Source: Escherichia coli
GTDB taxonomy: Bacteria; Pseudomonadota; Gammaproteobacteria; Enterobacterales; Enterobacteriaceae
Assembly (NCBI RefSeq): GCF_030013595.1
Contig: NZ_CP122768.1
DNA length: 64,000 bases
Reading direction: 5' to 3' (one strand)
The translations under genes and the position numbers were made by a program. Below, one piece after another: positions 23,329-58,739 of the stretch. Position 1 is the first letter of the stretch, and the number at the start of each line of letters is the position of its first letter. Under the pieces are notes generated by a model. The model was not told the origin of the DNA. It worked only from the letters and a program-made list of their open reading frames with translations, and searched no databases.

Positions 23329-23461
23329 TTTTTGGGACTCCTGGCTGATTAAGTATGTCGATAAGGCGTTTCCATCCGTCACGTAATTTACGGGTGATTC
23401 GTTCAAGTAAAGATTCGGAAGGGCAGCCAGCAACAGGCCACCCTGCAATGGCATATTGCAT
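23297..23461 (-). CDS. cIII: cIII (FtsH inhibitor), 54 aa; below the ORF-track length cutoff
   Basis: Manual translation of the minus strand: [54 protein letters not shown]. Confidence 0.7.
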   Translation of the reverse strand: MQYAIAGWPVAGCPSESLLERITRKLRDGWKRLIDILNQPGVPKNGSNTYGYPD

Positions 23462-23533
23462 GGTGTGCTCCTTATTTATACATAACGAAAAACGCCTCGA
23501 GTGAAGCGTTATTGGTATGCGGTAAAGCCGCGC

Positions 23534-32871: not shown

Positions 32872-33056
32872 ACGCCACAATTCAAACGATACCAGAACTT
32901 CTTATCCAGACACGAGGCAATCAGACCGAAGTGGCGAGGAGGCTTTCCTGTGCAAGAGGAACAGTGCTCAAGTACAACAGAGACAGCAAAGGCGAGCGTC
33001 ACGCAATAGTTAACGGCGTCCTGATGGTCAAACAGGGCAAGAGGGGAAGACGATGA
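32868..33056 (+). CDS. ninH: NinH-like small HTH protein
   Basis: 62 aa ...GNQTEVARRLSCARGTVLKY...; immediately precedes Q. Confidence 0.55.
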   Translation: MNATIQTIPELLIQTRGNQTEVARRLSCARGTVLKYNRDSKGERHAIVNGVLMVKQGKRGRR

Positions 33057-33676
33057 GACTCGAAAGCGTAGCTAAATTTCATTCTCCAAAAAGCCCGATG
33101 ATGAGCGACTCACCACGGGCTACAGCTTCTGACTCTCTTTCCGGTACTGATGTGATGGCTGCTATGGGGATGGCGCAATCACAAGCCGGATTCGGTATGG
33201 CTGCATTCTGCGGTAAGCATGAACTCAGCCAGAACGACAAACAAAAGGCTATCAACTATCTGATGCAATTTGCACACAAGGTATCGGGGAAATACTGTGG
33301 TGTGGCAAAGCTTGAAGGAAATACTAAGGCAAAGGTACTGCAAGTGCTCGCAACATTCGCTTATGCGGATTATTGCCGTAGTGCCGCGACGCCGGGCGCA
33401 AGATGCAGAGATTGCCACGGTACAGGCCGTGCGGTTGATATAGCCAAAACAGAGCAGTGGGGGAGAGTTGTTGAGAAAGAGTGCGGAAGATGCAAAGGTG
33501 TCGGCTATTCAAGAATGCCAGCAAGCGCCGCATATCGCGCTGTAACGATGCTAATCCCAAACCTTACTCAACCCACCTGGTCACGCACTGTTAAGCCGCT
33601 GTATGACGCTCTGGTGGTGCAATGCCACAAAGAAGAGTCAATCGCAGACAACATTTTGAATGCGGTCACACGTTAG
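33053..33676 (+). CDS. Q: Late-gene antiterminator Q (lambda-type)
   Basis: 207-aa ORF MRLESVAKFHSPKSPMMSDSPRATASDSLSGTDVMAAMGMAQSQAGFG...; followed by PR' and tR'. Confidence 0.9.
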   Translation: MRLESVAKFHSPKSPMMSDSPRATASDSLSGTDVMAAMGMAQSQAGFGMAAFCGKHELSQNDKQKAINYLMQFAHKVSGKYCGVAKLEGNTKAKVLQVLATFAYADYCRSAATPGARCRDCHGTGRAVDIAKTEQWGRVVEKECGRCKGVGYSRMPASAAYRAVTMLIPNLTQPTWSRTVKPLYDALVVQCHKEESIADNILNAVTR

Positions 33677-33950: not shown

Positions 33951-34025
33951 GGGTCAGTCGTATAAAGGTCATTACGGAAGGCTGTTAACCTTCTTATCGT
34001 GGTTCGAGTCCACGCTGTCCCGCCA
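33951..34025 (+). tRNA. Candidate phage-encoded tRNA (anticodon GTT, Asn-like); atypical D-arm and one acceptor-stem mismatch
   Basis: Manual fold: acceptor GGGTCAG/CTGTCCC, anticodon stem GAAGG/CCTTC with loop CTGTTAA, T-arm CGTGG-TTCGAGT-CCACG, 3' GCCA. Confidence 0.45.
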
Positions 34026-34030
34026 AATAT

Positions 34031-34106
34031 GCTGGTTTAGCTCCAATGGTAGAGCGGTCGCCTTGTAAGCGAATGGGTAGCGGTTCAAGTCCGTTAACCA
34101 GCACCA
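34031..34106 (+). tRNA. Candidate phage-encoded tRNA (anticodon TGT, Thr-like)
   Basis: Manual fold: acceptor GCTGGTT/AACCAGC, D-arm GCTC-CAATGGTA-GAGC, anticodon loop CTTGTAA, T-arm AGCGG-TTCAAGT-CCGTT, 3' ACCA. Confidence 0.5.
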
Positions 34107-34348: not shown

Positions 34349-34672
34349 ATGAAGATGCCAGAAAAACATGACCTGTTAGCCGCCATTCTCGCGGCAAAGG
34401 AACAAGGCATCGGGGCAATCCTTGCGTTTGCAATGGCGTACCTTCGCGGCAGATATAATGGCGGTGCGTTTACAAAAACAGTAATCGACGCAACGATGTG
34501 CGCCATTATCGCCTGGTTCATTCGTGACCTTCTCGACTTCGCCGGACTAAGTAGCAATCTCGCTTATATAACGAGCGTGTTTATCGGCTACATCGGTACT
34601 GACTCGATTGGTTCGCTTATCAAACGCTTCGCTGCTAAAAAAGCCGGAGTAGAAGATGGTGGAAATCAATAA
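34349..34672 (+). CDS. S: Holin S (class I, lambda-type)
   Basis: 107-aa [44 protein letters not shown]... with TM segments and dual start MKM. Confidence 0.9.
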
Positions 34673-35596: not shown

Positions 35597-35941
35597 TAGC
35601 GATAATTTTACTCATCATCCTTCACATCTGGCTCTGTAGACAGGGTGGTGATCACTTCTGGAGTGAATCCAGATTAAACATCTCATTGCTGATGCTTGAA
35701 GTTGAGCATCTGGCGCGCGGTAAGGGGCTGCGTTGAGATAAGAGCCAGTCATTACAAATACCAGGATTTAGCCTCGCATTCGCGGGGCTTTTTTATATCT
35801 GCAACAAACGCGCTTCACACGCGCGACTTATGAACACAGAACCTTTCAGGATGACCCTTGAGGATGCCGGTTTGGTGATCGGTGCCTTTCTGTGGGCCGG
35901 AATCCTGTGTGACAAGGTTCATCACTAAAAGGTGAGCACTG

Positions 35942-36484
35942 ATGAATTATCCAACTATCGTTAACGGCATCGATTTCCGAGAACTGATTTTTGTGGCAAA
36001 CAACGATCCGGTTACAGATTCTTTTATGGTGGCAAAAGCATTTGGAAAGCTGCCGAAGAACGTGGTTCGTGACATTGAGCGAACCATAGAAGCTTGCCCT
36101 CCTGAGTTTGATACAAAGCTCAACTTTGAGCTTTGCTATAAAAACAATGAGTTACAGAATGGTAAGCCGCAAAAATTCTACCGTCTACGCAAGGATGGGT
36201 TGATGCTTTTGGTTATGTCCTACACCAAAAAAGAAGCAATGCGTATCAAAATTGCTTACATCAACGCATTTAACTGGATGTACGCCATGCTTCAGGTTGG
36301 TCATCGTCAATTTGAAGAAGAGAGAAATGCCGTAATGCTGGAGTACATGAAAGAGAAGGATGTTGCCAGCATGTCAGGTCGCCTGCTAAATCGCTGGGGC
36401 AAAATTAAGAAGCCACAGTTGCTGGCTAGAATTGAACGCCTTGAACAGCACGGGCAAACCGTAATCCCCGGACTCATCAATTAA
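35942..36484 (+). CDS. Rha-family phage regulatory protein (second copy of the fold in this prophage)
   Basis: 180 aa MNYPTIVNGIDFRELIFVANNDPVTDSFMVAKAFGKLPKNVVRDIERTIE...; between the lysis cassette and terminase, as in P22. Confidence 0.6.
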   Translation: MNYPTIVNGIDFRELIFVANNDPVTDSFMVAKAFGKLPKNVVRDIERTIEACPPEFDTKLNFELCYKNNELQNGKPQKFYRLRKDGLMLLVMSYTKKEAMRIKIAYINAFNWMYAMLQVGHRQFEEERNAVMLEYMKEKDVASMSGRLLNRWGKIKKPQLLARIERLEQHGQTVIPGLIN

Positions 36485-36691
36485 CGGCAGTACCGCGAAA
36501 CAACCCAAGCCAGTAAGTGGGGAAATAACTGAAAGATGAACCTCCAGCCTTATGGCAAAAAAGATTCTTTGTGGTGGCGGACTGATGGAAAGACATCGGA
36601 TAGAATAAAACAGTGGCTAGGGTAGCTCCCGAAAAGCGGAATCGTCACCGCCAGCCACTGAATCTATGACGAACAACTAGACGAGGTTGAT

Positions 36692-36934
36692 ATGAGTGAA
36701 ATTGATAAAATAATAAATGGTACATGTAACTTTCAATCAATGCCGCCAGGTAGTTATGTAAAACAATGTAGTGAAATAGTTAATGGTCAGCTTGTAATGT
36801 CAAATGCAGGACGTGGAGTTTCTACGGATGAAAAAAAATCAATAAATGAAGCCCTATTAAGCATCAATGTTTTTGACTTGTTTCGCCCATCTTGGGTTAT
36901 TTTGCAAAATAGTAGTCAATTCCCACATTATTGA
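36692..36934 (+). CDS. AT-rich moron ORF (80 aa) of unknown function with its own terminator
   Basis: Low-GC ORF preceded by GAGGT SD; hairpin + T-run terminator 36953..36977. Confidence 0.4.
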   Translation: MSEIDKIINGTCNFQSMPPGSYVKQCSEIVNGQLVMSNAGRGVSTDEKKSINEALLSINVFDLFRPSWVILQNSSQFPHY

Positions 36935-36952
36935 TAAATTAATTAATAAATT

Positions 36953-36977
36953 GGTCGCTCAGGCGGCCTTTTTTATT
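36953..36977 (+). terminator. Rho-independent terminator after the moron ORF
   Basis: ggtcgc-tcag-gcggcc hairpin followed by TTTTTTATT. Confidence 0.55.
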
Positions 36978-37081
36978 GCCATCACAAAAGCCATTCCCTA
37001 CAGAGTGGCTTTGATAATGGCTTATACCCTACACGGGATAACTTAACTGATATCCCTTTTAACGGATAAACGGAGCCAACA

Positions 37082-37324
37082 ATGGCAGAGATTATTCCCA
37101 TGACTGAAGAACAGAAATTCCAGTTAGAGATTTACAAGCTGGTCATGAACCAGAACGCAGCCGCAGAAGAAGCATTTCAATTCATTGGCACTGACGAACT
37201 GAAGCTTGAGCTATTCAAAATTCACTTCCAGTCAGGTGGCGCTAATTCAGATATCACGACCCGAACTATCGAAGCGGTGCGTAAATCGAAGGAAGCGTTA
37301 GACCTGTTCACTACCGGAGCATAA
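37082..37324 (+). CDS. Hypothetical protein (80 aa) upstream of the small terminase gene
   Basis: ORF co-oriented with the late operon. Confidence 0.4.
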   Translation: MAEIIPMTEEQKFQLEIYKLVMNQNAAAEEAFQFIGTDELKLELFKIHFQSGGANSDITTRTIEAVRKSKEALDLFTTGA

Positions 37325-37403: not shown

Positions 37404-37892
37404 ATGGCAGCACCAAAGGGCAACCGATTTTGGGAGGCCCGCAGTAGTCATGGGCGAAATCCTAAATTCGAATCGCCTGAGGCGCTGTGGGCTGCTTGTT
37501 GTGAATACTTCGAGTGGGTAGAAGCTAACCCGCTATGGGAGATGAAGGCGTTCTCGTATCAGGGTGAAGTGATACAAGAGCCTATCGCCAAGATGCGAGC
37601 GATGACCATTACCGGACTCACTCTGTTCATTGATGTGACGCTTGAAACATGGCGCACATATCGCCTGCGAGAAGATTTATCTGAAGTCGTTACGCGAGCA
37701 GAGCAGGTCATCTACGACCAGAAATTCTCTGGCGCAGCCGCTGACCTTCTCAACGCTAACATCATCGCCCGTGATTTGGGCCTCAAAGAGCAGTCGCAAG
37801 TTGAAGACGTGACACCTGATAAGGGAGATCGCGATAAGCGACGCTCTCGTATCAAGGAGCTATTCAACCGTGGAACTGGACGCGATTCTTGA
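37404..37892 (+). CDS. Terminase small subunit (P22 gp3-like)
   Basis: 162-aa [53 protein letters not shown]...; precedes the large terminase. Confidence 0.8.
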
Positions 37893-39369
37893 TAACCTGA
37901 GCGACGAAGAGCAAATCGAGTTGCTCGAGCTACTCGAAGAAGAAGAGAACTACCGGAACACACACCTGCTATATGAATTTACGCCATACAGCAAACAGCG
38001 TGAGTTCATCGACGCCGGGCATGACTATCCAGAGCGCTGTTTTATGGCTGGTAACCAGCTTGGTAAGTCATTTACTGGTGCTGCTGAAGTCGCGTTTCAC
38101 CTTACCGGGCGTTATCCGGGCACAAAAGGCTATCCGGCTGATGGTAAATATGGTGGGGAGTGGAAAGGTAAGCGTTTCTATGAGCCTGTTGTCTTCTGGA
38201 TTGGCGGCGAGACAAACGAGACTGTAACCAAAACGACTCAACGCATCCTGTGCGGTCGTATCGAAGAGAATGATGAGCCTGGCTACGGCTCCATACCGAA
38301 AGAGGACATCATTAGCTGGAAGAAGTCTCCTTTCTTTCCGAACCTTGTTGATCACCTTCTGGTTAAGCATCACACGGCTGATGGCGTTGAAGATGGCATT
38401 TCAATCTGCTACTTCAAGCCATACTCGCAAGGTCGTGCTCGCTGGCAGGGTGACACAATCCACGGAGTGTGGTTTGACGAAGAACCACCATACAGCATTT
38501 ATGGCGAAGGGCTTACCCGTACCAACAAATACGGGCAATTCTCAATCCTGACGTTTACCCCGCTGATGGGGATGTCTGACGTTGTTACCAAGTTCCTGAA
38601 GAATCCCAGCAAGTCGCAGAAAGTGGTCAACATGACCATCTATGACGCTGAGCACTATACCGACGAGCAGAAAGAGCAAATCATCGCATCCTATCCAGAG
38701 CATGAGAGAGAGGCTCGAGCTCGCGGTATTCCTACGATGGGTAGTGGTCGAATCTTCCAGATACCGGAAGAGACGATTAAGTGTCAGCCGTTCGAGTGTC
38801 CTGATCACTTCTACGTAATTGGCGGGATGGATTTCGGATGGGATCACCCTCAGGCGCAGGTTCAGCTTTGGTGGGATAAGGACGCAGACACAATCTACGT
38901 TTCGCGCGTGTGGAAGGCGAAAGAAAAGACAGCTGTTCAGGCGTGGGGAGCCGTTAAACCATGGGCGCATAAAGTGCCAACCGCATGGCCCCATGACGGA
39001 AACCAGCACGAGAAGGGCGGCGGTGAGCAGCTTAAAGGGCAGTACGCGGACGCTGGTTTTATGATGTTGCAGGAGCATGCGACATGGCCTGATGGCGGTA
39101 ACGCTGTGGAGCCTGGAATCACTGAATTGCGCGACATGATGCTTGATGGTCGCTTCAAAGTATTCAACACCTGTGAGCCATTCTTTGAGGAGTTCCGCCT
39201 CTATCACCGTGATGAAAACGGGAAGATCGTCAAGCTTAACGACGACGTGCTATCCGCCGTTCGCTATGCATACATGATGCGCCGCTTCGCAAAAATGATG
39301 CGCGACATCAAAAAACCAAAAGAGAAAAAGATACCAGCCCCAATCAGGCCCATCGCACGGAGAACTTAA
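37870..39369 (+). CDS. Terminase large subunit (P22 gp2-like)
   Basis: 499-aa ORF with ATPase and nuclease regions; overlaps the small subunit end. Confidence 0.85.
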
Positions 39370-58664: not shown

Positions 58665-58679
58665 TGGTGTCCCCTGCAG
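58665..58679. repeat. Prophage attR core: 15-bp direct repeat (tggtgtcccctgcag) within the argW 3' end
   Basis: Exact copy of 19143..19157. Confidence 0.7.
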
Positions 58680-58739
58680 GAATCGAACCTGCAATTAGCC
58701 CTTAGGAGGGGCTCGTTATATCCATTTAACTAAGAGGAC
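58665..58739 (-). tRNA. argW: tRNA-Arg (anticodon CCU), argW; prophage attR at its 3' end
   Basis: Reverse complement reads GTCCTCTTAGTTAAATGGATATAACGAGCCCCTCCTAAGGGCTAATTGCAGGTTCGATTCCTGCAGGGGACACCA. Confidence 0.9.

Follow-up and report, generated by a model that had tools for sequence, protein, structure and literature searches.

Introduction

Morons, as defined for the lambdoid phages HK97 and HK022, are additional genes that carry a promoter and a terminator of their own, and lambdoid phages also have a cargo position downstream of the late antiterminator, where stx genes and tRNAs are found. In the systems of the c4 antisense RNA of P1/P7 and the CI antisense RNA of P4, a structured RNA resides in the leader of the operon that it controls, and its loops are complementary to ribosome-binding sites located downstream. 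The int-alpA RNA motif (Rfam accession RF02996) is a candidate structured RNA from comparative genomics; one paper naming it only lists the motif as present, and int-alpA does not appear in the main text of the paper in which this class of motifs was introduced. Here, we analyzed a stretch of 64,000 nucleotides (nt) of Escherichia coli DNA (NCBI RefSeq assembly GCF_030013595.1, contig NZ_CP122768.1; hereafter, the window), in which an int-alpA RNA is followed by a small open reading frame (ORF) of 80 amino acids (aa) and a predicted intrinsic terminator. On balance, we consider it probable that positions 36603-37002 constitute a promoterless cargo cassette of a phage late operon, namely an int-alpA leader of ~80 nt, an orphan gene, and an intrinsic terminator, in which the leader gates the translation of the gene.

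Structure of the leader

The window matches the Rfam model of int-alpA RNA at 36610-36672 on the plus strand with 42.0 bits against a gathering score of 35.8 (E-values of 6.5e-08 to 2.6e-05), and the match covers the full length of the model (positions 1-71 of 71). The minimum free energy (MFE) fold of the leader is the same three-way junction (z = -3.3), with conserved joining strands UA, GAAAA, and CA. The cassette and the elements of its leader are as follows.

36603-37002, plus strand: whole cassette (leader, ORF, and terminator), a stretch absent from the empty site of phage CUS-3
36610-36661, plus strand: three-way junction of the int-alpA-type leader (RF02996 match, with which the MFE fold agrees)
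36610-36617 paired with 36654-36661, plus strand: stem P1
36620-36622 paired with 36628-36630, plus strand: stem P2
36636-36639 paired with 36648-36651, plus strand: stem P3
36640-36647, plus strand: loop L3 of hairpin P3, AAUCGUCA, the proposed pairing element, complementary to boxes 1 and 2
36667-36672, plus strand: box 1 (UGACGA), putative pseudoknot partner of L3 (6-bp complement), 5 nt after P1
36674-36689, plus strand: small hairpin P4 (CAACU/GGUUG), which holds box 2 (GACGA, 36680-36684) and the GAGG at 36683-36686

When 36 distinct sequences were analyzed with RNAalifold, the three-way junction was recovered with compensatory changes in 12 of the 15 pairs. Paired cells amounted to 97.4%, and the covariation score was 0.655 as compared with 0.153 for shuffled sequences (reached in none of 500) and 0.07-0.09 for slid partners, in a set that had been pre-filtered for at least 7 of the 8 P1 pairs and for which the canonical search pattern had fixed P3. 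This covariation shows that the leader should be regarded as a functional RNA, also beyond any role in recombination.

In the window, the UCGUCA of L3 (36642-36647) is complementary either to UGACGA in box 1 (36667-36672) or to GACGA in box 2 (36680-36684), and box 2 abuts the GAGG in the loop of P4, a weak hairpin of -3.5 kcal/mol. A second scan, for canonical int-alpA motifs, gave 47 matches (35 distinct); among these canonical members, the loop of hairpin 3 varies, and the box lying 5-10 nt after P1 varies as its complement, as seen in the loop/box pairs CCCUA/UAGGG, ACCUAC/GUAGGU, UCUCGG/CCGAGA, CAUCCA/UGGAUG, and CCCGAUU/AAUCGGG. When 22 distinct loops were combined with their own box 1 or with swapped ones, the run sum was 126 versus 97.1 +/- 4.2 and the duplex energy was -162 versus -98 +/- 8 kcal/mol, neither of which was reached in 5000 permutations. 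For box 2, which adjoins or overlaps the SD sequence across the family, the run sum was 113 versus 98.2 +/- 4.1 (2 of 5000 permutations) and the duplex energy was -146 versus -109 +/- 7.7 (0 of 5000), in a test that controls only partly for generic complementarity to the Shine-Dalgarno (SD) sequence. L3 has two alternative partners, a decoy box and an SD box, and we therefore infer a control of translation initiation and possibly of mRNA stability. The leader would then act in cis on translation or on the stability of the mRNA: pairing of L3 with box 1 would free the ribosome-binding site, and pairing with box 2 would mask it.

The same complementarity would be expected if the junction were excised and, as a small antisense RNA, targeted boxes 1 and 2 both in cis and in trans, like c4 of P1 and CI of P4; cassettes with the same loop would then share an immunity-like repression, and the ORF would be the regulated target. 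Consistent with such a mechanism, Rfam gives the type of int-alpA as small RNA (sRNA), the loop is complementary to two boxes, one of which is at the ribosome-binding site, the loop-box pairs differ as specificities would, and the phages with two cassettes (L006 and L066; L and P numbers denote loci and proteins in this analysis) have the same loop in both. Nothing indicates processing, however, and no match to Rfam C4 was obtained in scans at E-values up to 1 and at the gathering score; also, the constant spacing of 42-47 nt to the ATG and the location of box 1 at 5-10 nt from P1 favor an intramolecular pseudoknot. An excised antisense RNA is, in our view, distinctly unlikely.

Distribution of the leader

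When IMG/VR was scanned for the pattern of the P22-type motif, at least 120 stretches of DNA were obtained, and at least 133 pattern matches were counted over all fetched loci, including the window and the E. coli loci. Among the matches listed, at least 75 have a perfect outer stem of 5 bp, and at least 73 of these are also followed by an ORF; the downstream ORFs form at least 24 unrelated families of 52-158 aa with their ATG 42-47 nt after the loop of hairpin 3, and the family of the 80-aa ORF is the largest and the most AT-rich of these 24 cargo families. For instance, the motif precedes the 80-aa ORF in L001-L003 and other cargo in L006 (DUF551) and in L012 (a hypothetical protein of 89 aa). 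When representatives of the cargo were searched against Pfam (10 of the P22 type and 8 of the canonical type), PADLOC (10), and PHROGs (6), only DUF6387, one HNH, and PHROG families with unknown function were hit.

In isolated phages, the leader was found in 21 of 50,697 records with 75-88% identity over ~82 nt, and its host range comprises Salmonella, Klebsiella, Enterobacter, Edwardsiella, Pantoea, Vibrio, Shewanella, and Pseudomonas. A search with the leader alone detected close copies of the subtype in the window in 46 of 5426 complete E. coli genomes. A figure of 2547 E. coli genomes, which match a 481-nt query, was rejected as the prevalence of the leader in view of this leader-only count; the larger number is due to other parts of the query, most likely the right-hand flank. 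We also noticed that P1 is disrupted and box 1 is weakened to CGACAA in the leaders preceding a 58-aa cargo (MDSQKQRDL; L099, L103, L108, and ~10 more loci), and some leaders are thus apparently decaying.

The int-alpA copy in the window is not located in an integrase-alpA region but sits between the genes for a Rha-family regulator and a DUF2560 protein in a late operon. At the canonical locus L143, a P4-type integrase gene, the motif, a cargo gene for a DUF6387 protein of 268 aa, and an AlpA-like gene are arranged in that order. In other canonical loci, the ORF after the motif varies widely (109-515 aa), and Pfam gave no match for the eight canonical cargo representatives besides DUF6387 and the one HNH. 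These variable ORFs indicate that the integrase-alpA position, too, is a slot for cargo that is preceded by this RNA.

The cassette and its slots

In a blastn comparison with phage CUS-3 (L010), homology to the window ends at 36602 and restarts at 37003, with 18 bp in CUS-3 instead; CUS-3 thus has a Rha-like gene followed by the hkbM/DUF2560 gene without the intervening 36603-37002. In other relatives, the same slot is filled with a gene for DUF551, a Gp49-family protein, an HNH or GIY-YIG nuclease, or one of several hypothetical proteins. Relocation is also seen: genes for homologues of the 80-aa protein with ~74% identity lie, along with their leader and terminator, between the antiterminator and holin genes, which is a second slot; namely, the gene for P0004, a homologue of 79 aa, lies between a Q/gp23-type antiterminator gene and the holin gene, while P0002 is encoded in the same slot as the copy in the window. 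The DNA common to both slots extends from ~36618/36630 to 36979, that is, ~75 nt of the leader, the ORF, and the terminator. Cassettes are located either between Q and holin genes or between Rz/Rha and DUF2560 genes, and they are always co-directional with the late genes. The 3' boundary is the following element.

36953-36979, plus strand: intrinsic-terminator-like hairpin and T6, a 3' boundary element common to many cassettes (stem-loop GGTCGCTCAGGCGGCC at 36953-36968, then TTTTTT)

This predicted terminator has a 6-bp stem with five GC pairs, a 4-nt loop, and the T6 run (36953-36974), and its hairpin folds with -13 kcal/mol (z = -2.8). The 27-nt sequence is a single copy in the window and is present in 10 related loci, an identical terminator follows 11 of the 24 cargo families among the matches listed, and the terminator of this slot is also found in Gally, a P22-like prophage.

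In relatives with different cargo between the retained leader and terminator, the breakpoints are at 36689-36695 (immediately ahead of the ATG) and 36953. With the exchange junctions at these positions, the conserved ends of the leader and the terminator probably serve as recombination handles, within which homologous recombination is likely to exchange the cargo. One could go further and regard the leader and the terminator as mere boundary sequences for recombinase-driven cargo swaps with the ORF as a near-neutral passenger. Such a reading would be in line with junctions exactly at the conserved ends, with tandem cassettes (L002, L003, and L007) and truncated variants of the ORF, and with the short conserved boundary sequences that have been proposed for lambdoid phages (as cited in PMC3029335). 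A patch of homology, however, would preserve neither pairing via compensatory changes nor an element-specific complementarity of loop and box; furthermore, the leader is 75-88% identical among phages of Vibrio, Pseudomonas, Shewanella, and enterobacteria, and the ORF is under purifying selection (see below). We therefore consider a purely recombinational role highly improbable.

The genes flanking the cassette are as follows.

35942-36484, plus strand: Rha-family regulator gene, upstream flank (Pfam PF09669 and PF10549)
37082-37324, plus strand: DUF2560 gene (hkbM-like), downstream flank (Pfam PF10834; CUS-3 annotation)
37404-37892: gp3 small terminase gene, after the DUF2560 gene (Pfam PF16677)
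37870-39369: TerL gene, after gp3, with the portal gene beyond

The neighboring Rha, DUF2560, gp3, TerL, and portal genes place the cassette in a P22-like late region. An earlier annotation made from the nucleotide sequence without database searches (hereafter, the sequence-only reading) had described a self-contained insertion in a P22-like prophage between the Rha gene and the terminase block, with a hairpin and a T-run downstream, and had proposed a presence/absence comparison across P22-like relatives. That comparison bears out the insertion, given the 18-bp empty site of CUS-3 and the alternative cargo elsewhere, and the hairpin and T-run are located at 36953-36974. The upstream neighbor is also as described, but the gene immediately downstream is that for DUF2560, and gp3, TerL, and portal come only thereafter. 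The left end needs to be revised: the unit had been thought to start at the SD sequence, while the structured RNA leader matching int-alpA begins ~80 nt earlier.

Several other features of the two slots were noted. A tandem pair of cargo genes in one slot, or a leader cassette in each slot, is seen in L002 (467-1174), L003 (3093-3576), and L007 (4480-5110), and further relatives with two cargo genes are L006 (6001-6240 and 8296-8511) and L066; the two tandem genes of L003 are separated by a 29-nt duplicate of part of the left spacer (36568-36596 of the window). In the window, the slot that holds homologues of the ORF elsewhere among phages is filled with tRNA-Asn(GTT) and tRNA-Thr(TGT) at 33951-34106, between the genes for a Q/gp23-like antiterminator (33053-33676) and the holin (34349-34672). 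Free-standing HNH genes adjoin the cassettes of the antiterminator-holin slot in L004 (3266-3742) and L005 (6533-7060), and homing nucleases (HNH and GIY-YIG) might contribute to the turnover at both slots. L004, the locus with P0002, also has an Rfam isrJ match of 44.2 bits (gathering score, 37) at 2807-2885, downstream of the gene for antiterminator Q.

The non-coding spacer between the Rha gene and the cassette (36485-36602) is conserved in many P22-like phages including CUS-3 with its empty site. A 29-codon ORF, MNLQPYGKKDSLWWRTDGKTSDRIKQWLG, at 36536-36625 extends into P1/P2 of the leader; its C-terminus differs from one cassette junction to another, and two loci have a frameshifted version. 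Most relatives have 12 nt, cactggcagcca, immediately before this ORF, which are missing from the window. A pair of terminator-like hairpins that face each other is located between the Rz and Rha genes (35770-35789 on the plus strand and 35825-35809 on the minus strand). Elsewhere in the window, the model of the lambda cIII thermoregulator RNA (Rfam RF01804) is matched over its full length with 88.5 bits at 23416-23474 on the minus strand in the early-left region, and tRNA-Arg(CCT) is encoded at 58665-58739 on the minus strand, which we presume may be the integration site at the end of the prophage.

The gene and its product

The cargo of the cassette in the window has the following features.

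36692-36934, plus strand: cargo ORF with an ATG start, encoding a soluble protein of 80 aa, 8.9 kDa, and pI 5.6 (three helices and a conserved low-confidence C-terminal tail are predicted)
36831-36838, plus strand: A8 homopolymer within the ORF (truncated 52-aa variants P0005 and P0006 are consistent with a +1 A frameshift here)

The GAGG at 36683-36686, 5 nt before the ATG, is the SD sequence of the 80-aa ORF. The GC content is 0.335 across 36700-36899 as compared with 0.44-0.52 in the flanking sequence, and the ORF itself has a GC content of 0.329 with 0.198 at third codon positions (GC3), while the genes for Rha, DUF2560, gp3, TerL, and the portal range from 0.43 to 0.52. The ORF was found in 14 of 5426 complete E. 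coli genomes and is named as a hypothetical protein in RefSeq.

Between the 80-aa and the 79-aa forms, the synonymous divergence (dS) is 0.64-0.88 and the nonsynonymous one (dN) is 0.14-0.15, giving a dN/dS of 0.17-0.22, and the sole indel is 3 nt long and in frame. Because of this ratio and this single in-frame indel, the ORF is a real gene under purifying selection and not a chance frame. The ATG and the SD sequence are conserved among the copies, and the ORF is intact in 17 of 18 copies in the loci fetched, with one truncated copy (L111); the 52-aa short forms (P0005, P0006, and L111) originate near the A8 run. From the very few homologues, none of which has a known function, and from the frameshifted variants at the A8 tract, one might consider that the ORF is not a gene and that this AT-rich DNA is either filler without coding function or an RNA. 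This appears scarcely credible to us, however, in light of the low dN/dS at a dS of up to 0.88, the in-frame indel, the conserved start and SD sequence, the 17 intact copies, and the RNA fold of the whole unit, which is no better than those of shuffled sequences (z = -0.9).

The 80-aa protein has no family match in Pfam, NCBIfam, PADLOC, and PHROGs, and tblastn against the 50,697 phage records gave no match. A word-indexed search of ~5.8 billion clustered proteins hit only six clusters, all of which belong to one family with the 80-aa protein. In an exhaustive search of 1.84 billion representatives with a hidden Markov model (HMM), 38 proteins were listed, among which the cluster of P0004 is the sole genuine relative; the others (P0007-P0043) are giant repeat proteins with E-values down to 2e-20, yet with only 5-15 bits per domain and none above 15. 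Summation over repeats in an HMM search of a whole library can thus yield false relatives for short queries. The best-looking lead among them, immunoglobulin-like repeats of the Big_12 type with 35% identity, was dropped given the 5-15 bits per domain and E-values that come from summed repeats; it was also rejected as a beta-sandwich fold because both AlphaFold models are all-helical, and Pfam gave no match.

In the AlphaFold models of the 80-aa and 79-aa forms, both proteins consist of three helices and a C-terminal tail of low confidence (predicted local distance difference test, pLDDT, of 65 and 73), and fold searches with these models hit generic helical bundles only. The tail is nevertheless conserved in sequence (RPSW..N..QFP.Y). 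A type I toxin or a small membrane protein was excluded by a maximal hydropathy of 1.1 in 19-residue windows, a grand average of hydropathy (GRAVY) of -0.19, and the lack of a hydrophobic transmembrane segment. The product is thus predicted to be a small cytoplasmic helical protein, and our guess is that it most likely binds a protein of the host or of a rival phage late in infection.

With respect to the gene, the sequence-only reading has held: it had reported a low-GC ORF of 80 aa (36692-36934 on the plus strand, GC of 0.329) with its own ribosome-binding site (the GAGG 5 nt from the ATG), no transmembrane segment (the maximal 19-residue Kyte-Doolittle mean is 1.1), and no recognizable family, to which the four databases also gave no match. 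The profile of GC and codon bias that it had called for sets the ORF apart from its neighbors (GC3 of 0.198 and the GC contents given above). The proposed remote-homology and structure predictions supplied a generic three-helix bundle but no informative relative.

Promoters and expression

The window shows no sigma-70-like site ahead of the ORF. A single strong match of this type lies close by, at 36687-36714 on the plus strand (10 of 12 positions); it overlaps the start codon and cannot drive the full ORF. A second promoter-like pair of hexamers is located on the minus strand at 36736-36707 (9 of 12) in the AT-rich start of the ORF, and both pairs are probably chance matches in DNA of 33% GC. 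When the 60 nt upstream of the leader were examined in 39 distinct contexts, none reached 8 of 12 for a promoter, as was also the case at control positions. These upstream contexts are mutually unrelated (ends of Rz genes, terminators, and spacers), and nothing promoter-like therefore travels with the cassette. ATCGTCA and TGACGA, which were considered as -35 and -10 boxes, were rejected as such, since these positions covary as complements in the canonical members.

The sequence-only reading had called the unit a classic moron, and the insertion, the atypical composition, the own ribosome-binding site, and the predicted terminator stand, whereas no promoter was found in the window or in the 39 leader contexts. 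As a moron, the gene would be transcribed in the lysogen from its own promoter that the consensus search missed, its product would function in lysogenic conversion or in superinfection defence, and the terminator would protect the terminase genes. This is the main rival to a late-operon cassette: besides the GC content, the own SD sequence and terminator, and the insertion polymorphism, a terminator within an antiterminated operon would make most sense for transcripts that are not lytic. Against it, we found no promoter-like site upstream of the ORF in the window, where the one good match overlaps the start codon, none of the 39 contexts reached the threshold of 8 of 12, no promoter-like element moves with the cassette through its unrelated upstream contexts, and PADLOC gave no matches. 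In a lysogen of Gally, furthermore, only the repressor was expressed above background according to the transcriptomic data, with no expression of accessory genes (PMC9928086). We thus see a classic moron as unlikely, although it is the alternative that we take most seriously.

In the late-operon cassette that we prefer, the gene would be transcribed within the antiterminated late transcript and not from the repressed prophage. The terminator would then shield the downstream packaging genes from stray transcription and would give the message a stable 3' end.

Discussion

A promoterless late-operon cassette with a translation-gating leader is the reading that we hold to be probable, and several points weigh against it. 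Rfam classes int-alpA as an sRNA gene and not as a cis element; the support from covariation is inflated by selection for P1 and P3, while P2 and the loop-box pairings were unselected; P4 is weak with an energy no better than that of shuffled sequences; and the L3 loops are mostly CCUU-like, so that part of the signal at box 2 is generic anti-SD complementarity. The leader is degraded in the family of the 58-aa cargo, and its structure is hence not indispensable. Late-only expression is deduced from the position and from the missing sigma-70 consensus, and a weak or non-sigma-70 promoter would escape such a search. Finally, the protein models are of low to moderate confidence (pLDDT of 65 and 73) and match generic bundles only, and the role suggested for the protein is a guess.

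More tentatively still, the int-alpA leader could be a general expression socket, that is, a pseudoknotted riboregulator that toggles between the decoy box and the SD box and thereby gates interchangeable orphan genes; a ligand or a protein would possibly be sensed through the invariant nucleotides of the junction. We advance this idea as a possibility. If it is true, the gated orphan genes would span phage late operons and the integrase-alpA slot of satellite-like islands, and the 80-aa protein would be an effector in the conflict between phage and host or between phages, released only under the condition sensed by the leader.

The ORF is already known in RefSeq as hypothetical, and so is the int-alpA motif in Rfam. 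In the literature searched, we found no description of the leader as a common 5' element of the swappable orphan-gene cassettes of phage late operons, of the dual complementarity of its loop to decoy and SD boxes, or of the place of the 80-aa ORF in such a system; papers on boundary sequences, DUF2560, and the hotspots of phage-inducible chromosomal islands (PICI) and alpA contained nothing that concerns this leader in particular. The discoverers of int-alpA may already know of the pseudoknot, since the seed annotation in Rfam and the original supplement lie outside the searched literature.

The gene alone would be another small phage ORF, and it is the link to the leader that makes the result useful. 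A curated but uncharacterized RNA motif is found as the common 5' leader of at least 24 unrelated orphan genes, among the matches listed, in P22-like and other phages, and the complementarity of its loop to a nearby box and to the ribosome-binding region offers a concrete hypothesis for the role of int-alpA RNA. The leader also offers a simple means to locate, by sequence, accessory-gene cassettes of phage and satellite genomes, whose cargo is almost entirely functional dark matter; the sampled proteins (10 for Pfam, 6 for PHROGs, and 10 for PADLOC) matched no family of known function. In terms of the moron concept, the mobile unit would be refined to a leader, an ORF, and a terminator without a promoter, which is swapped at conserved ends.

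Compared with the lambdoid morons, the cassette is alike in that an accessory gene of atypical composition with its own ribosome-binding site and a downstream terminator lies between genes that are adjacent in relatives; it is unlike them in having no detected promoter, in its co-directional location inside the late operon, and in an RNA leader that is shared with other cargo. As for the cargo position after the antiterminator, the 79-aa homologues lie exactly there, between Q/gp23 and holin genes, where the window has tRNA-Asn and tRNA-Thr, whereas the ORF in the window is in the second slot, between Rz/Rha and DUF2560 and ahead of the packaging genes. The lambdoid boundary sequences and, as a looser analogy, integron cassettes also feature promoterless swappable ORFs bracketed by short conserved elements, and the exchange junctions coincide with conserved elements as in the former; here, however, neither a dedicated recombinase nor an attC site is present, and the 5' element is an RNA structure with covariation that includes the pairing to the SD region.

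Among RNAs, c4 of P1/P7 and CI of P4 follow the same regulatory logic as that proposed for the leader in the window, but no similarity in sequence or structure and no evidence of processing were seen here, and the targets of the leader are within 10-45 nt, suggesting intramolecular pairing. The closest described relative is int-alpA RNA itself (RF02996), with which the leader shares a score above the gathering threshold, the three-way junction, the conserved joining strands CUAG and CGAAAAG, and a complementarity of the loop to the 3' tail as in the canonical members collected here. It differs from them in its location, a P22-like late operon instead of the integrase-alpA region of islands, and in its loop/box pair, AUCGUCA/UGACGA as opposed to the CCUU-like/AAGG-like canonical pairs. 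While int-alpA is registered as an sRNA gene in Rfam, it is consistently the 5' leader of small ORFs in the loci examined in this study.

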